NCBI RefSeq assembly: GCF_049243625.1
Contig: NZ_CP046975.1
DNA: 32,000 bases
Origin: Corynebacterium amycolatum
Lineage (GTDB): Bacteria; Actinomycetota; Actinomycetes; Mycobacteriales; Mycobacteriaceae
Direction: 5' to 3' (one strand)
Shown in pieces: positions 2,525-32,000 of the stretch. The notes below the pieces were generated by a model. That model saw only the letters and a program-made list of their open reading frames with translations, had not been told where the DNA came from and made no database searches. Position 1 is the stretch's first letter. Each line of letters opens with the position of its first letter. The position numbers were made by a program, and so were the translations under genes.

Positions 2525-3463
2525 TTAACTGCTCTTGACGGAGAACTTGGCGGATACGACGCGCGCCAGGATATTGATGAGGGCAATGATGAGAACCAGC
2601 GTGAGCGCTGCGCCCCACATCTTGTCGAATGCCGCACCGGTATTACCGGCCTTGTACATGTCCAGCATGAACAGTGGCAGCGAGGACTGCGACTGGCCGA
2701 ACGGGTTGTAGGTAATGATTCGCGAGGTTGCAACCAGAATCAGCATCGGTGCGGACTCACCCATAACGCGGGCGACGGCCAGCATGATGCCGGTGACGAT
2801 GCCCGACAGTGCGGTCGGGAGCACAATCTTCAAAATGGTCTTCCACTTCGGAACACCCAGAGCGTAAGAGGCTTCACGCAACTCGTGCGGAACGATGCGC
2901 AACATTTCCTCGGTGTTGCGGACCACGATCGGCAGCATCAGCAGAACCAGTGCCAGCGACACGGCGAAGCCGGAGCGGCTCATGCCGAACATGACCACCC
3001 ACATCGAGTAGATGAACAGCGACGCAACGATCGACGGCACACCGGAGAGGATGTCGACCATGAAGGTGGTGACCTTGCCCAAGCGGGAGTTACCTGCGTA
3101 CTCGACCAAGTAGATGGCGACGAAGATACCGAACGGCACGGTCATGAGAGTTGTGACCAGAGCCTGAACCAAGGTACCGACGATTGCGTGAGCAACACCG
3201 CCGGCAGACGCACCAACGGTGACACCGCGCTGGGAAGCAGTCCACCACTCACCACTCAGCAGTGACGGGGTACCTCGGACGACAAGCTCAAAGAGAACCC
3301 ACACCAGCGGGATTAGGGCAAGAGCCATGCAGCAGTAAATGAGGACCGTGGAGACGTTGTCCGCTACCTTGCGGGAACCCTTAATCTGGGTGAATGCCGA
3401 CTCCGTGGTGGGGACCATGTCTGCGGGGCCGTGAGGCGAAGAATCAGTAGTTGAACTAGTCAT
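2525..3463 (-). CDS. pstA: phosphate ABC transporter permease PstA
   Basis: Multi-pass membrane protein carrying the ABC permease EAA-type loop (..EASYALGVPKWKTILKIVLP..). It sits between pstC and pstB. Confidence 0.93.
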   Translation of the reverse strand: MTSSTTDSSPHGPADMVPTTESAFTQIKGSRKVADNVSTVLIYCCMALALIPLVWVLFELVVRGTPSLLSGEWWTASQRGVTVGASAGGVAHAIVGTLVQALVTTLMTVPFGIFVAIYLVEYAGNSRLGKVTTFMVDILSGVPSIVASLFIYSMWVVMFGMSRSGFAVSLALVLLMLPIVVRNTEEMLRIVPHELREASYALGVPKWKTILKIVLPTALSGIVTGIMLAVARVMGESAPMLILVATSRIITYNPFGQSQSSLPLFMLDMYKAGNTGAAFDKMWGAALTLVLIIALINILARVVSAKFSVKSS

Positions 3464-3495
3464 TGTTACTTCTCGTTTCTTTTCCTACGACCTTG

Positions 3496-4539
3496 CTACT
3501 TCTTCGCAATCATTCGGGCTGCGGAGTTGACCACGAAGGTCAGCAAGAACAGCACCAAACCTGCGGACATGTAAGCGCCGGCCTTGAGGTTGTCATTGAA
3601 CTCCGGTGCCGCATTAGCAATTGCGGTTGCGAAGGTGGTACCACCGTCGAAAAGCGAGCCACGGAATGCCGAGGACGGGGAGATTACGAGGTACAGAGCC
3701 ATCGTCTCACCGAGGGCGCGTCCCAGACCCAGCATCGAGCCGGAGATAAAGCCAGAACGACCGAATGGCAGAATGGCCAGCTTGACCATCTCCCAACGGG
3801 TCGCACCGAGAGCCAGCGATGCCTCAATGTGACCACGCGGGGTCTGAACAAAGACCTCACGGGTGGTAGCCGCGATAACCGGCAGAATCATAATTGCTAG
3901 CACAATGCCACCGGTGAAGAGGTTTCGACCGGTCTCGAAGGCCGGTGAGTTTGGGTACAGGGCAAACATCGGGATAAAGCCCAGTGTCTTAGCCAACCAC
4001 CCGTACAGACCAGCCAATGCCGGACCGAGAGCCATAAAGCCCCACAGACCGTAAACAATCGACGGCACTGCGGCCAGCAAATCCACGAGGTATCCCAGCG
4101 GCTTAACCATCTTCTTTGGAGCATAGGCAGTCAGGAAGATGGCAATACCCAGCGCAACCGGCATCGCCAGAATCAGCGCCAGGATGGAAACCGCGACGGT
4201 CACCAGAAACATGTTCGGAATACCGAAGTACATGGCGGAGGTATCCGCCAGGTTCCATCGTTCGGTGTAGGTGAAAAAGTTCGCTTCGTTACGGGACATT
4301 GCCGGAACTGCGCGCAGGAGTAGGAACACTGCAATTGCGATGATGGCAGCAGTCACCAATGCGGAAGATCCTACCGCCAGAATCTTGAAGATTCGGTCAC
4401 CAGGACGAACAACGCCGGACTGAATGGCTTGCTCTTCCGAGCTCTCGTCGCCGGAGGAATCCACCTGCGGTGCTGAGGACTGCAACAGACTGCTGTCTAC
4501 AGCCTCCTGCTTCCCTTCAATGGGAGTCGAGGAACTCAT
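3496..4539 (-). CDS. pstC: phosphate ABC transporter permease PstC
   Basis: Multi-pass permease with the loop ..EASLALGATRWEMVKLAILP... It follows pstS, in the canonical pstSCAB order. Confidence 0.93.
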   Translation of the reverse strand: MSSSTPIEGKQEAVDSSLLQSSAPQVDSSGDESSEEQAIQSGVVRPGDRIFKILAVGSSALVTAAIIAIAVFLLLRAVPAMSRNEANFFTYTERWNLADTSAMYFGIPNMFLVTVAVSILALILAMPVALGIAIFLTAYAPKKMVKPLGYLVDLLAAVPSIVYGLWGFMALGPALAGLYGWLAKTLGFIPMFALYPNSPAFETGRNLFTGGIVLAIMILPVIAATTREVFVQTPRGHIEASLALGATRWEMVKLAILPFGRSGFISGSMLGLGRALGETMALYLVISPSSAFRGSLFDGGTTFATAIANAAPEFNDNLKAGAYMSAGLVLFLLTFVVNSAARMIAKK

Positions 4540-4716: not shown

Positions 4717-4772
4717 CGCGCCAACCGGGTAACAACAGAGCCAACTCTGCTTTCACCCGCGTTGCGCGCAAC
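4717..4772 (-). promoter_or_regulatory. structured RNA element in the pstS-pstC spacer (candidate partial terminator or mRNA stabiliser)
   Basis: A perfect 12-bp palindrome GTTGCGCGCAAC (4761-4772) starts 4 nt after the pstS stop. The outer imperfect stem pairs ACCCGCGTTGCGCG (4755-4768) with CGCGCCAACCGGGT (4717-4730). It encloses an inner hairpin CAGAGccaaCTCTG (4736-4749). No U-tract follows. The spacer is 236 bp. Confidence 0.45.
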
Positions 4773-26332: not shown

Positions 26333-27295
26333 ATGGCTAAGACCCTGGACGCCATTCCCAATCTGGTTCCGCTCTACGCCAAGGCAGCTGCTGGTTCGGC
26401 AAAGAAGCGCCCGAACTCCACCGAAATCAAGGTCGATGAACTAGTGGTCAAGGGTGTCACTGTCGATGCCGACCGCGACCAGGACTTCCGCGACGTCGTT
26501 GGCGCCCCGAAGTCTGAGCAAGCGTTCTTCGGCCACATCCACGCCCTAATCATGCCCATTCAGATGGAGCTGATGGCTGGGGACGATTTCCCGCTGCCGA
26601 TGATGGGCCTGGTCCACACCGAGAACACCTACCGCGAAATCTCGCCTGTCACACTCGGCGGCAAGGTTGATATCGCGGTGAAGGTTGCCGCATTCCGCGC
26701 TCACCGCTCGGGCACTGAGGTTGTTCTGGAGTCGACTGTTGCATCGTCCACATCCGGCGCCACCTTGGTCGAGGAGCAATCGGTGTACCTGGCCAAGGGC
26801 GTTCGCCTGAAGGACGCCGAGGGCTTCGAAGAGGTCCAGGCACAGCGTGAGGCCATCAAGTCCGGCGCCGAGACCATCAAGCGTGAGCAGTTTAAGGTCC
26901 CCTTCCCCACCGCTCAGTGGAAGCTGGCTGGCAACACCGGCCGCAAGTGGGCCAAGGTTTCCGGTGACTGGAACCCGATTCACATCACCTCTGTCTCCGC
27001 GAAGGCTCTGGGCATGCCAGCAGCGATTGCACACGGCATGTACACCGCCTCCCGCGCGCTGGCTGAGGCACAGGTTCTGCCGGGTCAGTCGTACGAGTTC
27101 CAGATTTCCTTCGGTGCGCCGGTCGTTCTGCCGACCACCATCAATGTCGCACTCACCCACACCGGTGACGGTGCAGGTGCTGCTCACAACCTGACTGAGG
27201 GCAGCTCCAACATCGGCCGTGCAGTCAACATTGTCGCGTGGGATCGCAAGAAGAAGCGTCCGCACTTCACCGGAAGTGTTCGTCCGCTGAAGTAG
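26333..27295 (+). CDS. MaoC-like (R)-specific hydratase/dehydratase, double hotdog, HtdX-like
   Basis: Hydratase-2 motif VSGDWNPIHITSVSAKALG in the C-terminal hotdog, plus a degenerate N-terminal hotdog. Ribosome-binding site AAGGAGGA. Confidence 0.8.
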   Translation: MAKTLDAIPNLVPLYAKAAAGSAKKRPNSTEIKVDELVVKGVTVDADRDQDFRDVVGAPKSEQAFFGHIHALIMPIQMELMAGDDFPLPMMGLVHTENTYREISPVTLGGKVDIAVKVAAFRAHRSGTEVVLESTVASSTSGATLVEEQSVYLAKGVRLKDAEGFEEVQAQREAIKSGAETIKREQFKVPFPTAQWKLAGNTGRKWAKVSGDWNPIHITSVSAKALGMPAAIAHGMYTASRALAEAQVLPGQSYEFQISFGAPVVLPTTINVALTHTGDGAGAAHNLTEGSSNIGRAVNIVAWDRKKKRPHFTGSVRPLK

Positions 27296-27313
27296 TTGAT
27301 GCGAAAGCGCTGA

Positions 27314-27385
27314 AAAACCGCCGCGCTTTGGAAAACCAGTCTCCTCATCGACTGGGCCTTTCCAAAGCGCGGCGGTTTTGTTTCC
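27314..27385. terminator. strong intrinsic terminator after the htdX-like gene
   Basis: Perfect 21-bp stem AAAACCGCCGCGCTTTGGAAA (27314-27334) pairs with TTTCCAAAGCGCGGCGGTTTT (27359-27379). The stem encloses an inner CCAGT/ACTGG hairpin. A T-rich tail GTTT follows. Confidence 0.88.
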
Positions 27386-27590
27386 CTGTTGTGCTTTTGC
27401 CCAGGGCACGACTGGAGCCCCCTCCGAGAGACACCGCCTCCTCCCTCTCTCCCCCCCCCGGCCGGCAACCCCGCCACTTTCCCGCCTTGAAGATCAGCTG
27501 CTGGGTTTTTCCGCCGTTAATGCAGAGTCGCGGCTTTACTTCGCAATTGCGTGACTAAGCACTTTTCAACCGCATGTAGGCAACGCCTTG

Positions 27591-27637
27591 TTGACACCCC
27601 ATTCACTCCTCTATTTTATGTTCAATCCATTGAACAT
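27591..27637 (+). promoter_or_regulatory. candidate nrdI-nrdF promoter with overlapping palindromic operator
   Basis: Perfect TTGACA (27591-27596). TATTTT, which fits TAnnnT (27612-17), follows after a 15-nt spacer. Then a perfect 9-2-9 palindrome ATGTTCAATccATTGAACAT (27618-27637) directly abuts the AGGAGG ribosome-binding site (27638-43). Confidence 0.5.
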
Positions 27638-27650
27638 AGGAGGTAATCGA

Positions 27651-28115
27651 GTGTCTTCATCATCGAAGACGCCGCTGACTTTCACGGAACTCCCACCGGA
27701 GGAGTCACCCCGAATCGTGTACTTCTCCAGTGCTTCTGAAAACACTCACCGGTTCGTCCAAAAGCTGGCTCAACCAGCAGCACGCATCCCGTTACATCCG
27801 CGAAAAGACGGAATGATTCGCGTTTGCAGCCCATTTGTCCTGATCACACCGACTTATGGTGGCGGATGTCGGCGCCGCGCGGTACCTAAGCAAGTCATCG
27901 CTTTTCTCAACGACGAAACCAACAGGAGTTTCATCCGCGGTGTCATCACCTCGGGCAACACAAATTTCGGCACCGACTTTTGCATAGCCGGAGCCATCAT
28001 TTCTGCAAAATGCCAGGTTCCGGAGCTATACCACTACGAGCTACTGGGGACAGACCACGATGTGGAAAACGTCAAAGAGGGCCTGGAAAAATTCTGGAGG
28101 AGCGCTACTTCTTGA
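27651..28115 (+). CDS. nrdI: flavodoxin-like ribonucleotide reductase activase NrdI
   Basis: [18 protein letters not shown].., ..LITPTYGGG.., ..[11 protein letters not shown]... GTG 27651 lies 7 nt after AGGAGG. The track start at 27588 is the TTG of the -35 region and is rejected. Confidence 0.9.
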
Positions 28116-29116
28116 ACATCTACAGCTATTCAACTACGCCACCGTCTTTTCGAAAGGACCCAGCTGCCCGCCTTCGGCCGATCAACTGGAACCGAGTGCA
28201 AGATGACAAAGATCTCGAAGTGTGGAATCGCCTAACAGCAAATTTTTGGCTGCCCGAAAAAGTTCCGCTGTCCAATGACCTTGCAGACTGGCGACGTCTC
28301 ACCGATCTAGAACGCGAGCTGACCATGAAGGTCTTCACCGGACTGACCATGCTCGACACAGTCCAGGCGTCTGTCGGGGAGATTTCCCAAATTCAAGATG
28401 CCCGCACCGAACATGAAGAGGCCGTCTACACGAATATCGCTTTCATGCAAGCAGTGCATGCAAAGTCTTATTCTTCAGTATTTTCTACGCTATCCAATAC
28501 CCCTGACATCGACGCTGCCTACCAATGGGCAGTCGCCAATGACATCCTGCAGGCTCGGTCAAAAGCTGTGCTCAAACACTATTACGGCGACGTTCCACTC
28601 AAGCGAAAGGCGGCAGCAACGCTTCTTTCGTCCTTCTCGCTCTACGCCGGCTTCTACCTCCCGCTGCACTTCGCATCACGTGGCATCCTGACCAATACCG
28701 CCGACATGGTGCGCCTGATTCTGCGTGACAAAGCTGTTCACGGCTATTACTCCGGCTACAAATTCCAGCGAGGCGTAGAAACCTACGACACCGCCACGCA
28801 AACGCAGATGAAGGCTTTCGTCTTCGAACTTCTCGATGATCTATACCAGCTCGAACTGAGGTACTCCGAAGCCCTATACCAACCACTCGGGCTCTACGAC
28901 GACGTTGCCAACTTCATTCGATACAACGCCAACAAAGCGCTCATGAACTTGGGATACCCGCAGCGGTTTAACCATGAAGAGACCGCCTTCAAGCCCGAAA
29001 TTCTCGCCGCCCTCACCCCGGGGTCAGATGAAAACCACGACTTTTTCTCCGGTTCCGGCTCCGCATATGTCATCGGAAAAGCCGAAGACACCGCAGATGA
29101 AGACTGGGATTTCTAA
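28112..29116 (+). CDS. nrdF: class I ribonucleotide reductase beta subunit NrdF with the Gln/Ser/Lys (QSK) metal-site substitutions (class Ie-type)
   Basis: Full-length NrdF homology ([34 protein letters not shown] ... [14 protein letters not shown] ... DEDWDF). The TTG start overlaps the nrdI TGA (TTGA), and GGAGGAG lies about 10 nt upstream. Metal-site positions are D82, Q113 (CAA 28448-50), H116, Y120, S173 (TCG 28628-30), K207 (AAA 28730-32) and H210. Confidence 0.88.
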
Positions 29117-29158
29117 ATCCACGTCTTTCCCCATACATCCTAAGAAAGGAACATTCGC

Positions 29159-29734
29159 ATGACTGCACAGATTTCTATCCTGGTAGGAAGCTTGCGTCGA
29201 GCCTCCTATGCACGAAAGATTGCACTCAAGGCAGCCACGTACTTCCCCGATGACTTCAAAGTCGACATCGTCGAGATTCGTGACCTCCCTCTCTACAACT
29301 TCGACTACGACGACCCCGCAGTGTCCGATATTGCGACTCCCGCGGAATACACCAGTTTCCGGGAAACCATTAAAGCCAGCGATGGCATCCTATTTGTCAC
29401 CCCAGAAAACAACCGCACAATTCCTGCAGCTCTGAAGAATGCCGTTGACATCGGATCTAAGCCCAACGGTGATGTGGCATGGAAGAACCTGCCCGCGGGA
29501 ATTATCAGCCACTCCGTCGGCCGTATGGGAGGTTATAGCTCTCAGAAGAACTTGCGACTCGCGCTGTCGTACTTCGACATGCCGATGCTCGGTCAGCCAG
29601 AGGTCTTCCTGGGACAATCGCCAACACTCATTGACGAACAAGGAGAATTCACGTCGTCAAGCACTGAGGACTTTGTTCGCGACTACATCAACAGATTTGC
29701 AGACCTAGTTCGAGAGCAGAGCCCACGCCACTAA
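29159..29734 (+). CDS. NAD(P)H-dependent FMN reductase (flavodoxin-like fold, YieF/ChrR/SsuE family)
   Basis: ISILVGSLRRASYARK.. phosphate-binding loop, GILFVTPENNRTIPAALKNAVD, and ..GIISHSVGRMGG... ATG follows AAAGGA. It starts 42 nt downstream of nrdF on the same strand. Confidence 0.8.
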   Translation: MTAQISILVGSLRRASYARKIALKAATYFPDDFKVDIVEIRDLPLYNFDYDDPAVSDIATPAEYTSFRETIKASDGILFVTPENNRTIPAALKNAVDIGSKPNGDVAWKNLPAGIISHSVGRMGGYSSQKNLRLALSYFDMPMLGQPEVFLGQSPTLIDEQGEFTSSSTEDFVRDYINRFADLVREQSPRH

Positions 29735-29854
29735 CTGAAATCCCCTAATCAGCGCAGCGTTACTGGGGATATCGCCGTATGAAGATTCTTCACTGACTAG
29801 GATCAAACGCTGCGTTCTCTGCACGGCTAAGCGCTCGTCGTTAGGCTCATTTTC

Positions 29855-30550
29855 ATGACTGTTTCTATCTCGGCCGTGATCGCGCTTAACGACGACCCCC
29901 GCGCCGCTGCGCGGTTTTACGCCGAAGGTTTTCACTCCAACATCAAGCCCAACTCCACCACGCTCACCATCGGCGGGATGGACTTCGAACTCATTGAGAA
30001 CGGGAACCGCCGATTAACCCCCGCTGTGTCTTTTATGGTGCGATTTGCCCCTGGTCAGGAAAACCAGCTACGCAGCCTGTGGGAGCATCTGATGGCGGGT
30101 GATGAAACCATCAGCGGTGGTGCTGCACTCATGCCCCTGACCAGCTACGATTTCTCGCCGCTCTTTGGCTGGTTGGTCGACGGCAATGGGGTCAACTGGC
30201 AACTGATGATTAATTCCTTAACCAGCGGGGCTGCAAGCACGGACTCTGCCGCAAAGACAGCGAATCCCGCCGTTATTCCCTACTTCATGTGGACAGGCGA
30301 CGAACCACAGGCTGCCGCCGCCACCGAGGTATACAACCAACTTTTCGGGTCAGAGAATTTCATGACGCTCGACTCGCCGGGCATGCACAATTTCACCTTC
30401 GGCGACGGTGTGGCGATGCGTCTCTCCAGCGATTCTGCCGAAGAGGTCGAAAGCGCCTGCCAAGCGCTTGGCCTTACAGGCGCTGAGGTTGCCGAGGGCA
30501 CGGAAGCCGTCGTCAAGCCTGACCGATTCGGCGTGTACTGGACGCTCTAG
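29855..30550 (+). CDS. VOC/glyoxalase-superfamily protein, tandem PhnB-like (3-demethylubiquinone methyltransferase-like) halves
   Basis: ..AARFYAEGF.. and ..LFGWLVDGNGVNWQL.. in the first half. ..ATEVYNQLFG.. and ..KPDRFGVYWTL in the second half. This resembles the PhnB-type F-Y...F / GW..D.FG..WQ pattern. Confidence 0.55.
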   Translation: MTVSISAVIALNDDPRAAARFYAEGFHSNIKPNSTTLTIGGMDFELIENGNRRLTPAVSFMVRFAPGQENQLRSLWEHLMAGDETISGGAALMPLTSYDFSPLFGWLVDGNGVNWQLMINSLTSGAASTDSAAKTANPAVIPYFMWTGDEPQAAAATEVYNQLFGSENFMTLDSPGMHNFTFGDGVAMRLSSDSAEEVESACQALGLTGAEVAEGTEAVVKPDRFGVYWTL

Positions 30551-30552
30551 CG

Positions 30553-32000
30553 TTACTTACGGGTCAACGCGATTGTCGCGCCGATGACCAAGACTAGAAG
30601 CACTGTCCCCATAGAGAACCACATCATCTTCGAGGAGCCGTCATCCTCGTTTTCTTCGGTGGTCTTCGGATTCTGCTGGCTACTAGTCGGGGTTTCGCTA
30701 CTTGGCGACTTGTGCGCGACCTGTTCAAAAGCTGGGCCCGGGATCTTCTCGCCGACCAACTCCGTGGTCAGCTGGTAAGTCACCGGGACGTTTTGAACAT
30801 CCGCGACATCGTGGGATTTACCGGCGCCCCAACTGTTGTTGAAGAAGACAACGATGTACTGGTCACCATCCAGCCACGCTCTTTCAGCCTCGTAATCGCC
30901 CGACTTTTCGCCATCTTCGCCGATCCGATTGCGGTAGTTAATCCGGGCCGAGTTACCAAATGTTGTCTCTTCGCCAATCTGGTGTTCATTTACCGGACGG
31001 CTTTCCTCGCTACCGGCGAGCTGGCGTGCCGAATTCAGCGTCTTGATATCCAGGCCGGAGATTTGTGCAAGCTTGTCCGCTTCTGGGGCGTCAATGAGTT
31101 TGACGGCGCCGCGGAGCTGCTGCCCATACTCGGACTTGATCTTGTACACGTGCGTCTCACCAGGAACAATGTCGGCCGTGACGCTGCTGATGTTGTCGGC
31201 AGTAAGTTCCGTGGCGTCATCGAACCACGAACCTGGGGTGACCTTCTTAGCCTGATCTGCTTCCGGCGTCGCGGGCGGAGGGTTCAAGCTCTCCTTGTCG
31301 GACGGGAACGCCTCCGGCACATCAGTCAGGTTTTCGTTGGCGAAACGCTTGATGATCACTTCTGCAGGAATGTCCTGACCTTCGAAGGGGCCTCCTTTTC
31401 GGGCCACGGAGAACACCATATTGCCCGACTTACAGTCCCCCTCCGCTCCTCCGGGCTGCTTGGTTGTTATCGATGCGAAAAAGGGGCCATTGGAGTCGAT
31501 GATGCCATTGCCGAAATCATTGGCAAGGAAGCAACTGCTGTCGTCCAAATGCATAGTGAGCGCGAAGTTGCGGATATCTAGGTCCATCAAAGTCGCGCCT
31601 GACGACGCTCCCGGCAACGTGGCCGCACTAATTGCAAGCCGCTCTCCCTCAGCGACCGGGACGGAGAAGTACTCAGCACCGTCGCCTTCCTGATTACTGA
31701 TGCTGCGCTCGGACTCAGGAGTCTTTTCCCGCAGCTTGGTCGAGAACGTTTCCACGTCGGCAGGCACCTGGGTAGCGCTCGTAGGAGCGTCGCCGCCCTG
31801 TATCTCTTGCGCGCTGGACTGCGCGGTGCGTGCGGTGCGGGTCGCCAGCGTCTTCATGGACTCAGCCAGCGAATCGGAGTCCTGGGCGTCTAGGTACTCG
31901 CCGCCTGTGGCCTCAGCAATGCACTCAAGTTCAGCACGTGCGCCCGCATCAACGAGGAAACCAACTGTGTTGATGACCAGATCAATGCCCTGCTGCTTGA
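30553..32000 (-). CDS. VWA-domain protein with C-terminal TM anchor (N-terminus outside the window)
   Basis: The reading frame stays open upstream of the track Met to the window edge. It reads ..KQQGIDLVINTVGFLVDAGARAELECIAEATGGEYLDAQDSDSLAESMKT.., typical of the end of a von Willebrand A domain. The C-terminus has an S/T/P-rich linker and the TM segment MMWFSMGTVLLVLVIGATIAL. Confidence 0.6.
   Translation of the reverse strand, partial: KQQGIDLVINTVGFLVDAGARAELECIAEATGGEYLDAQDSDSLAESMKTLATRTARTAQSSAQEIQGGDAPTSATQVPADVETFSTKLREKTPESERSISNQEGDGAEYFSVPVAEGERLAISAATLPGASSGATLMDLDIRNFALTMHLDDSSCFLANDFGNGIIDSNGPFFASITTKQPGGAEGDCKSGNMVFSVARKGGPFEGQDIPAEVIIKRFANENLTDVPEAFPSDKESLNPPPATPEADQAKKVTPGSWFDDATELTADNISSVTADIVPGETHVYKIKSEYGQQLRGAVKLIDAPEADKLAQISGLDIKTLNSARQLAGSEESRPVNEHQIGEETTFGNSARINYRNRIGEDGEKSGDYEAERAWLDGDQYIVVFFNNSWGAGKSHDVADVQNVPVTYQLTTELVGEKIPGPAFEQVAHKSPSSETPTSSQQNPKTTEENEDDGSSKMMWFSMGTVLLVLVIGATIALTRK

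Follow-up and report, generated by a model that had tools for sequence, protein, structure and literature searches.

A QSK-type ribonucleotide reductase subunit of Corynebacterium amycolatum in a probable manganese-regulated operon with nrdI and an FMN reductase gene

We analyzed a 32,000-nucleotide stretch of the Corynebacterium amycolatum genome (from contig NZ_CP046975.1; hereafter, the window) that contains nrdI, nrdF, and a gene for a flavin mononucleotide (FMN) reductase, in that order and on the same strand (Table 1). NrdF is the beta subunit (R2) of a class I ribonucleotide reductase (RNR). Judging from its sequence, this NrdF is a class Ie R2 of the QSK type, in which glutamine, serine, and lysine take the place of three metal-binding carboxylates, and it has its own NrdI. 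We consider it likely that the three genes form an operon that is induced when manganese is limiting, and that the operon provides a metal-free beta subunit, which would be activated by NrdI and would work with the housekeeping NrdE, possibly with electrons from the FMN reductase.

The key residues of NrdF were read directly from the codons. A sequence-only reading of this stretch, made by a model, had listed D82, Q113, H116, Y120, S173, K207, and H210 as the residues of the metal and radical sites, and the codons bear this out. It had also claimed that these residues are spaced like the ligands of Salmonella NrdF, so that the substitutions are not an artifact of alignment. This claim holds: in a search of the PDB, the alignment to NrdF from Escherichia coli/Salmonella was a single ungapped stretch (positions 19-334 of the query against 4-319 of the chain, an offset of 15). 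Because the stretch is of equal length in both proteins, the residues correspond to D67/E98/H101/Y105/E158/E192/H195 in the established numbering of the E. coli and Salmonella proteins.

The start codon of nrdF is TTG, which shares the letters TTGA with the TGA stop codon of nrdI, and a ribosome-binding site (GGAGGAG) lies about 10 nt 5' of the start. The two genes are translationally coupled through this overlap of stop and start. Public gene calls on identical DNA give the same 334-amino-acid product. A longer open reading frame, beginning at 27980, runs through nrdI sequence in a different frame; nrdF can be explained without it.

Table 1. Features of the nrdI-nrdF-FMN reductase locus, in coordinates of the window
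Feature	Position	Strand	Details
Hairpin	27314-27379	+	Perfect, 21-nt arms; from repeat search; just after the stop (27295) of the MaoC-like gene
Promoter-like hexamers	TTGACA 27591-27596, TATTTT 27612-27617	+	15-nt spacer; read by eye
Palindrome TATGTTCAAT-cc-ATTGAACATA	27617-27638		Perfect, 10+10; from repeat search; 0 expected by chance in the window
nrdI	27651-28115	+	154 aa; GTG start; AGGAGG ribosome-binding site at 27638-27643; flavodoxin-like activator of NrdF
nrdF, QSK variant (predicted class Ie R2)	28112-29116	+	334 aa; translation closed by a stop
D82 of NrdF	28355-57		GAC, codon read directly
Q113 of NrdF	28448-50		CAA, codon read directly
H116 of NrdF	28457-59		CAT, codon read directly
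Y120 of NrdF (expected DOPA site)	28469-71		TAT, codon read directly
S173 of NrdF	28628-30		TCG, codon read directly
K207 of NrdF	28730-32		AAA, codon read directly
H210 of NrdF	28739-41		CAC, codon read directly
NAD(P)H-dependent FMN reductase (ChrR/YieF/PA1204-like)	29159-29734	+	191 aa; 43 nt after nrdF

We considered whether this might be an ordinary, manganese-dependent class Ib NrdF whose substitutions are errors of assembly or sequencing. NCBI does name the protein "class 1b ribonucleoside-diphosphate reductase subunit beta," and besides matching PF00268 (E = 1.5e-81), it passes the cutoffs of the class 1b models of NCBIfam. However, an index of public assemblies has this exact protein in 703 blocks, and the identical sequence occurs in hundreds of independent assemblies; when we searched 5.8 billion proteins, 120 of the 120 best homologs had D-Q-H-Y-S-K-H at the columns of the site. 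Across all 121 sequences, the tyrosine (Y120), the aspartate, both histidines, and the lysine are invariant. Because the identical protein recurs in so many assembly blocks and all of the homologs are QSK, the three codons are not sequencing errors, and resequencing would not restore the glutamate codons. Furthermore, as described below, the protein falls in a clade that is separate from canonical NrdF. Homologs, assemblies, and tree together refute the explanation by sequence errors, and we give it next to no credence.

The best match for NrdF in the PDB was R2e-QSK from Gardnerella vaginalis (8RAG/8RAH, 494 bits, 64% identity), whose three sites read FMQSIH, LLSSLLLYAGF, and ILRDKAIHG. Canonical class Ib proteins scored 446 bits or less (446 bits for NrdF2 from Mycobacterium tuberculosis and 439 bits for R2F from Corynebacterium ammoniagenes), and class Ie proteins of the VPK type (valine, proline, and lysine at the three positions), from Mesoplasma florum and Aerococcus urinae, scored about 392-399 bits. 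NrdF shares 72-86% identity with QSK proteins from other genera and 58-59% with canonical NrdF of Corynebacterium. All 80 of the related loci from species-representative genomes encode the QSK type, and at these loci the linkage of nrdF to its own nrdI is constant; here too, a dedicated nrdI adjoins nrdF. In a neighbor-joining tree of 25 QSK sequences (including the window protein and 8RAG) and 9 canonical NrdFs, the split between the QSK and canonical class Ib sequences was recovered in 100 of 100 bootstraps, with 8RAG on the QSK side; since the tree holds neither a VPK sequence nor an outgroup, it speaks to the QSK/canonical bipartition only.

The claim that a Corynebacterium has an NrdF of the class Ie type is thus upheld by the best structural match, by the nearest neighbors, which are all QSK, and by the tree, in which the protein groups with the G. 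vaginalis enzyme. The attribution of the variants in the sequence-only reading was partly mistaken. It ascribed the VPK type to Mesoplasma, which is correct, but it ascribed the QSK type to Aerococcus and Streptococcus: A. urinae and Streptococcus pyogenes are also VPK, and QSK has been characterized in G. vaginalis (PMC11846895).

Comparisons to these characterized proteins show what is shared and what is not. The G. vaginalis protein has the same Gln, Ser, and Lys, the aspartate, both histidines, the tyrosine, the C-terminal tail, and the dependence on NrdI, and it belongs to the same clade. However, in G. vaginalis, a single operon holds nrdHIEF and there is no further class I beta subunit, while C. 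amycolatum has nrdI-nrdF without nrdE or nrdH, with an FMN reductase gene at the 3' side and with a second, non-QSK nrdF elsewhere. The R2e-VPK proteins of M. florum, A. urinae, and S. pyogenes have also lost the three ligand positions, with lysine at the third, and they too use a DOPA (dihydroxyphenylalanine) radical and need NrdI; they differ in having Val/Pro in place of Gln/Ser, the gene order nrdFIE with a dedicated NrdE, hosts in the Bacillota, and lower similarity. The canonical proteins from C. ammoniagenes (1KGN) and M. tuberculosis (NrdF2, 8J4X) share the fold, the length, the radical-site tyrosine, and the residues for proton-coupled electron transfer, but they have three glutamate ligands (E/E/E) and a Mn2-tyrosyl cofactor, are 58-62% identical, and lie on the opposite side of the split.

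That C. amycolatum encodes a QSK R2 is not new and is already in the literature. John et al. (2025) reported QSK proteins in 266 GTDB genomes, all from Actinomycetota, of which 105 are Mycobacteriales, including many Corynebacterium; they counted the nrdIF gene order 104 times; and their Supplementary Data 1 names both C. amycolatum (GCF_016889425) and C. amycolatum_A (GCF_000173655, strain SK46), each with one QSK gene, the stretches F, HIE, and IF, and nrdR (PMC11846895). The locus in the window is 99% identical at the protein level to that of C. amycolatum SK46, and NCBI and UniRef name the members of the NrdF cluster as C. amycolatum, always as "class 1b." Since the proteins, their abundance in Corynebacterium, the nrdIF order, and their presence in C. 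amycolatum have all been published, the core finding has little value as a discovery. Reannotation of these QSK proteins, which NCBI still describes as class 1b, would be useful but routine.

The n_rnrs column in the table of John et al. gives different values for identical stretches (F, HIE, and IF): 1 for C. amycolatum and 2 for Corynebacterium diphtheriae. We found no consistent reading of this column, and our view of whether QSK is the sole RNR of a genome makes no use of it. If n_rnrs = 1 underlies the count of genomes with QSK as the sole RNR, then C. amycolatum, Corynebacterium jeikeium, and Corynebacterium kroppenstedtii, which have a stand-alone non-QSK nrdF, may be included in that count.

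The proposed chemistry follows that of the G. vaginalis enzyme. The QSK protein from G. vaginalis does not bind Mn or Fe; its tyrosine is converted to DOPA upon coexpression with NrdI; and only the DOPA form supports turnover (PMC11846895). In the C. amycolatum protein, no Mn2/Fe2 cofactor should form, because Gln, Ser, and Lys stand where three carboxylate ligands would be. By homology, reduced NrdI and O2 would convert Tyr120 to DOPA and would also generate a DOPA-based radical, which would then drive nucleotide reduction in NrdE.

A different possibility is that the QSK protein is an inert beta-like subunit, analogous to Rnr4 of yeast, that pairs with or chaperones the canonical NrdF. As is well established, Rnr4 has lost its metal ligands as well. 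The published table indicates that the genome also has a non-QSK nrdF, and the G. vaginalis protein had low activity in vitro and no radical after purification (PMC11846895). On the other hand, QSK is the only class I beta subunit of G. vaginalis, where its DOPA form does support turnover (PMC11846895). Also, the tyrosine, aspartate, two histidines, and lysine do not vary among the 121 sequences; the QSK gene is in every case linked to an nrdI of its own; and it is under purifying selection, with a ratio of nonsynonymous to synonymous divergence (dN/dS) of about 0.04. (Our estimates of dN/dS are 0.04-0.05 for nrdF and 0.06-0.12 for nrdI, and we conclude that both are working genes.) We think it very improbable that the QSK protein is inert.

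We did not find nrdE in the window or within 10 kb on either side. The QSK NrdF most likely shares the housekeeping NrdE, from the nrdHIE operon, with the ordinary NrdF. The C-terminal tail of class I RNR beta subunits binds the large subunit, and the tail of this NrdF is nearly the same as that of R2F from C. ammoniagenes (...GKAEDTTDDDWDF); the NrdE-binding C terminus ...DDDWDF is common to C. amycolatum NrdF, 1KGN, and 8J4X. The canonical tail fits with the use of the ordinary NrdE. The sequence-only reading had proposed a metal-independent backup route for the synthesis of deoxynucleoside triphosphates (dNTPs). This is sensible if it is understood as a metal-sparing alternative beta subunit, because, according to the published table with its stretches HIE and F, the same species has nrdHIE and a second, non-QSK nrdF (PMC11846895).

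The evidence for regulation by manganese centers on the palindrome upstream of nrdI, which directly adjoins a -10-like hexamer and extends to the ribosome-binding site of nrdI. The palindrome is kept across the C. amycolatum complex, and what changes there are lie mostly in the spacer or at single positions of an arm. In 1.43 Mb of related loci, we counted 54 occurrences of the pattern GTTC-N8-GAAC. In 13 of 81 loci, an occurrence falls in the 500 nt upstream of nrdI, versus about 1.5 expected; these 13 sites have AT-rich flanks in common. We built a position weight matrix from 14 sites of this motif family, and with a cutoff of 14 bits, it had 39 matches. Thirty-two of these are within about 260 nt upstream of a QSK nrdI or nrdF, in 31 of about 81 loci, and the matches take in 17 loci outside the training set. 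Two of the 32 lie between nrdF and a divergent operon for an ATP-binding cassette (ABC) importer (ZnuA/ABC ATPase/ABC-3) in one Dermabacteraceae genome, and another match is 15 nt before a gene with a DtxR-family domain in Leucobacter; these two contexts are from other genera, not from C. amycolatum. More broadly, genes for DtxR-family regulators or metal transporters are found within 10 kb in 21 of 80 loci. Sites of the form GTTCAA-N4-TTGAAC are also found upstream of nrdI-nrdF(QSK) in Corynebacterium atypicum and Corynebacterium auriscanis. We found neither the operator motif nor the FMN reductase at the canonical nrdH-nrdI-nrdE / nrdF locus of Corynebacterium marquesiae. The operator is widespread but not universal.

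The palindrome is probably a site for a manganese sensor of the DtxR family (MntR), by which the operon would be repressed. The distribution of the motif, the neighboring genes for DtxR-family regulators and importers, and two precedents point to manganese-dependent repression by an MntR-type regulator. In C. diphtheriae, nrdI-nrdF2 (DIP1923-DIP1924) is listed as regulated by MntR and Mn, and DtxR does not bind the nrdI promoter (PMC13001254). The IF stretch of C. diphtheriae is the QSK one (PMC11846895), and the two-gene nrdIF arrangement is the same as in C. amycolatum; it differs in that no FMN reductase is reported in the operon, and the regulon includes a separate "oxidoreductase" (DIP2262). 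In S. pyogenes, the class Ie operon (nrdFIE.2) is under the control of MtsR and is derepressed when Mn is limiting (PMC6698748). That is another class Ie RNR controlled by a DtxR-family sensor, but it is of the VPK type and has its own NrdE and a different regulator and operator. In C. amycolatum, MntR at the palindrome, over the region of the transcription start, would repress the operon, and scarcity of Mn would turn it on and open a metal-sparing route to dNTPs. A presumed form of the MntR box of Corynebacterium glutamicum, TGTTCAATGCGTTGAACA, would agree with the palindrome at 15 of 16 arm positions (8+8 nt).

We also considered whether the palindrome might instead bind NrdR, the iron-sensing DtxR/IdeR, or another factor, so that expression would not be controlled by Mn. 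At other loci, the Pfam domains of the neighboring regulators do not separate MntR from IdeR. Also, some QSK operons of Corynebacterium have other repeats upstream: ACTACG-N6-CGTAGT (in L175 and L177) or two copies of CCATCTATATA (in the Corynebacterium propinquum group). However, NrdR is well known to bind a tandem pair of sites, and here there is a single site; the palindrome does not resemble the iron box of DtxR/IdeR; the same motif precedes a Mn/Zn-type ABC importer and a DtxR-family gene; and in C. diphtheriae, the nrdI promoter is not bound by DtxR and the operon is listed under MntR (PMC13001254). We rejected the NrdR-box and the DtxR iron-box readings on sequence and context, and we consider it unlikely that the palindrome binds a regulator other than MntR.

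If an Mn sensor does act at these sites, then the operator and the neighboring genes for Mn homeostasis tie QSK RNRs to Mn limitation in many Actinomycetota. Previously, such a link had been documented in C. diphtheriae and, in the case of the VPK type, in S. pyogenes. It would be relevant to corynebacteria of the skin and mucosa, which face calprotectin from the host.

In five loci from the C. propinquum/Corynebacterium pseudodiphtheriticum group, where the GTTC-N8-GAAC operator is missing, the direct repeat CCATCTATATA(G/A) occurs twice in tandem about 40 nt 5' of nrdI, before the ribosome-binding site. In Corynebacterium sp. MSK218 (L175, ~840-900) and Corynebacterium hindlerae (L177, ~3440-3500), there are repeated AACTACG-N6-CGTAGTT palindromes 5' of nrdI, with an adjoining DtxR-family gene. 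Several sites from Micrococcales are GTTCG...CGTAG hybrids. These palindromes and hybrids may represent a variant operator for a paralogous regulator. Finally, in Micrococcoides hystricis (L038), a 21.7-bit match to the operator at 4769 is about 800 nt beyond the ABC-3/ZnuA genes of a cluster for a metal ABC transporter and may be upstream of that operon.

The product of the gene downstream of nrdF matches PF03358 (FMN_red) with E = 2.6e-29. In the PDB, it matches 1RTT (E = 1.6e-23), and the matches to 1RTT, 3U7R, 3SVL, and 4HS4 have E values of 1e-19 to 1e-23; the family includes ChrR, YieF, and PA1204 (1RTT, 3SVL, and 3S2Y; E = 1e-18 to 1e-23). A consensus scan gave no terminator-like site between nrdF and the reductase gene, and this reductase is probably a member of the operon with nrdI and nrdF. 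Orthologs that are 64-80% identical are on the same strand, 0-404 nt after a QSK nrdF, in 20 of 80 species loci. These 20 loci span Microbacteriaceae, Brevibacteriaceae, Dermabacteraceae, Actinomycetaceae, and the C. amycolatum complex. The nrdF-FMN reductase arrangement also occurs in 86%-identical contigs from Logan, in a different chromosomal context. When we searched with the reductase as the query instead, four of four further orthologs from Corynebacterium (from C. sp. MSK218, C. atypicum, C. hindlerae, and C. auriscanis) were directly after a QSK nrdF, in differing contexts, and two of these loci have a DtxR-family gene just upstream.

The metagenomic orthologs are less often linked. 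We examined 80 reductase loci from metagenomes, which form 23 clusters at 90% identity. The reductase is directly downstream of a QSK nrdF in 4 clusters, and another three lie 5 kb or less from nrd genes. In one of these three (L101-L103), the link to nrd genes is probably not real, because an opposite-strand gene for phosphoenolpyruvate carboxykinase separates the reductase from nrdI-nrdE. Because only about 7 of 23 clusters have nrd genes this close, we rejected the idea that the linkage is obligatory. Every nrdF that we found beside a reductase ortholog is QSK. Some stand-alone orthologs (L096, L118, and L105/L114/L117) have the operator 50-150 nt upstream, in contexts that are otherwise unrelated.

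Several observations weigh against our interpretation of this locus. First, most of the metagenomic clusters of reductase orthologs are not linked to nrd genes, and the largest cluster is unlinked and lacks the operator. Second, the FMN reductase is gone from the C. amycolatum_A lineage (SK46, HMSC; L004 and L009) by a clean deletion of about 665 bp (corresponding to 29117-29854 of the window and to about 11006-11080 in L004 and L009), which has GCA/TGCA microhomology at its flanks and has left a remnant of the ribosome-binding site of the reductase. Because it was deleted in this lineage, the FMN reductase is dispensable. Third, the exact palindrome was absent upstream of nrdI in the nearest QSK loci of other Corynebacterium (the C. 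propinquum/C. pseudodiphtheriticum group, the 86%-identical contigs from Logan, and Corynebacterium flavescens) and in Streptomyces. Fourth, the assignment to MntR leans on the papers about C. diphtheriae and on the presumed box TGTTCAATGCGTTGAACA. Fifth, the role as a backup rests on the published table, as does the presence of a canonical nrdF and nrdE in C. amycolatum: the canonical nrdF of C. amycolatum was not among the 120 matches listed for C. ammoniagenes R2F as the query, all of which were at least 86% identical. Sixth, the DOPA radical and the absence of metal are extrapolations from the G. vaginalis enzyme, at 64% identity.

What might the FMN reductase do? It may keep NrdI reduced, at the expense of NAD(P)H. 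When the G. vaginalis QSK enzyme was assayed in vitro, replenishment of reduced NrdI was limiting (PMC11846895). A tentative proposal, which we regard as possible but doubtful, is that the FMN reductase is a dedicated NAD(P)H:NrdI reductase of QSK RNRs, that it belongs to the same Mn-limitation regulon (of the MntR type) across Actinomycetota, and that it sustains the short-lived DOPA radical. If this proves true, then the reductase is the component that John et al. described as missing for quantitative assays in vitro. As a linked and coregulated gene, it is a concrete candidate for the physiological reductant of NrdI and could enable proper kinetics of QSK enzymes. The known reductants of NrdI are reportedly ferredoxin/flavodoxin-NADP+ reductases, in Bacillus cereus. 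None of the ChrR, YieF, and PA1204 reductases is known to act on NrdI or to have a link to nrd genes.

Alternatively, the FMN reductase might be a general quinone or flavin reductase that is coregulated with nrdI-nrdF, gives protection from oxidative stress under Mn scarcity, and has no direct role with NrdI or RNR. Its closest solved relatives (ChrR, YieF, and PA1204) are quinone or chromate reductases, many orthologs stand alone in unrelated contexts, C. amycolatum_A has lost the gene while keeping nrdIF, and about three quarters of the QSK loci lack it. However, all of the adjacent nrdFs are QSK, even in searches that began from the reductase. In many lineages, the gap is 0-59 nt, which points to cotranslation, and the limit on QSK activity in vitro is the supply of reduced NrdI (PMC11846895). 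Overall, we give the general reductase about an even chance of being the right explanation.

Within the C. amycolatum complex, the reductase gene in the window is nearly identical to that of L010/L011 (11048-11620 in those loci), with a synonymous divergence (dS) of 0.007, as compared to a dS of 0.21-0.23 for the adjacent nrdI and nrdF. The low divergence of the reductase gene suggests that this segment was recently exchanged within the complex, by recombination or transfer. The reductase gene is followed on the same strand by a 231-amino-acid open reading frame (29855-30550) with a weak match to PF06983 (PhnB/3-demethylubiquinone-9 3-methyltransferase-like). The first terminator-like site after nrdF is at 30631-30649, past this open reading frame, which could be cotranscribed with the nrd operon. 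We did not see relatives of the 231-amino-acid protein beside nrd genes in other genera.

NrdI matches PF07972 (E = 2.8e-45) and TIGR00333, and public assemblies have identical calls. Upstream of nrdI, the hairpin is probably the terminator of the MaoC-like gene and would insulate nrdI from transcription that comes from upstream. Its loop of 24 nt is the reason that the consensus terminator scan missed it. The two hexamers are a candidate for the nrdI promoter, which the consensus promoter scan did not call. Rfam gave no riboswitch or other RNA family in 27200-29900. Also in this region, a C-rich tract (CCTCCTCCCTCTCTCCCCCCCCCGGCCGG, 27430-27470) lies about 130 nt 5' of the candidate promoter. 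Its length and composition differ among the near-identical strains L001-L004, which could reflect a variable tract or noise in the assembly of homopolymers.

The window contains no metal transporter, mntR, or nrdE. Positions 1-23300 hold ordinary housekeeping genes of corynebacteria, including phoU, a pst-like phosphate ABC transporter, a purM-like gene, and purC, as well as genes for a prolyl oligopeptidase, a nitroreductase, and a trio of thiolase, FabG-like, and MaoC proteins.

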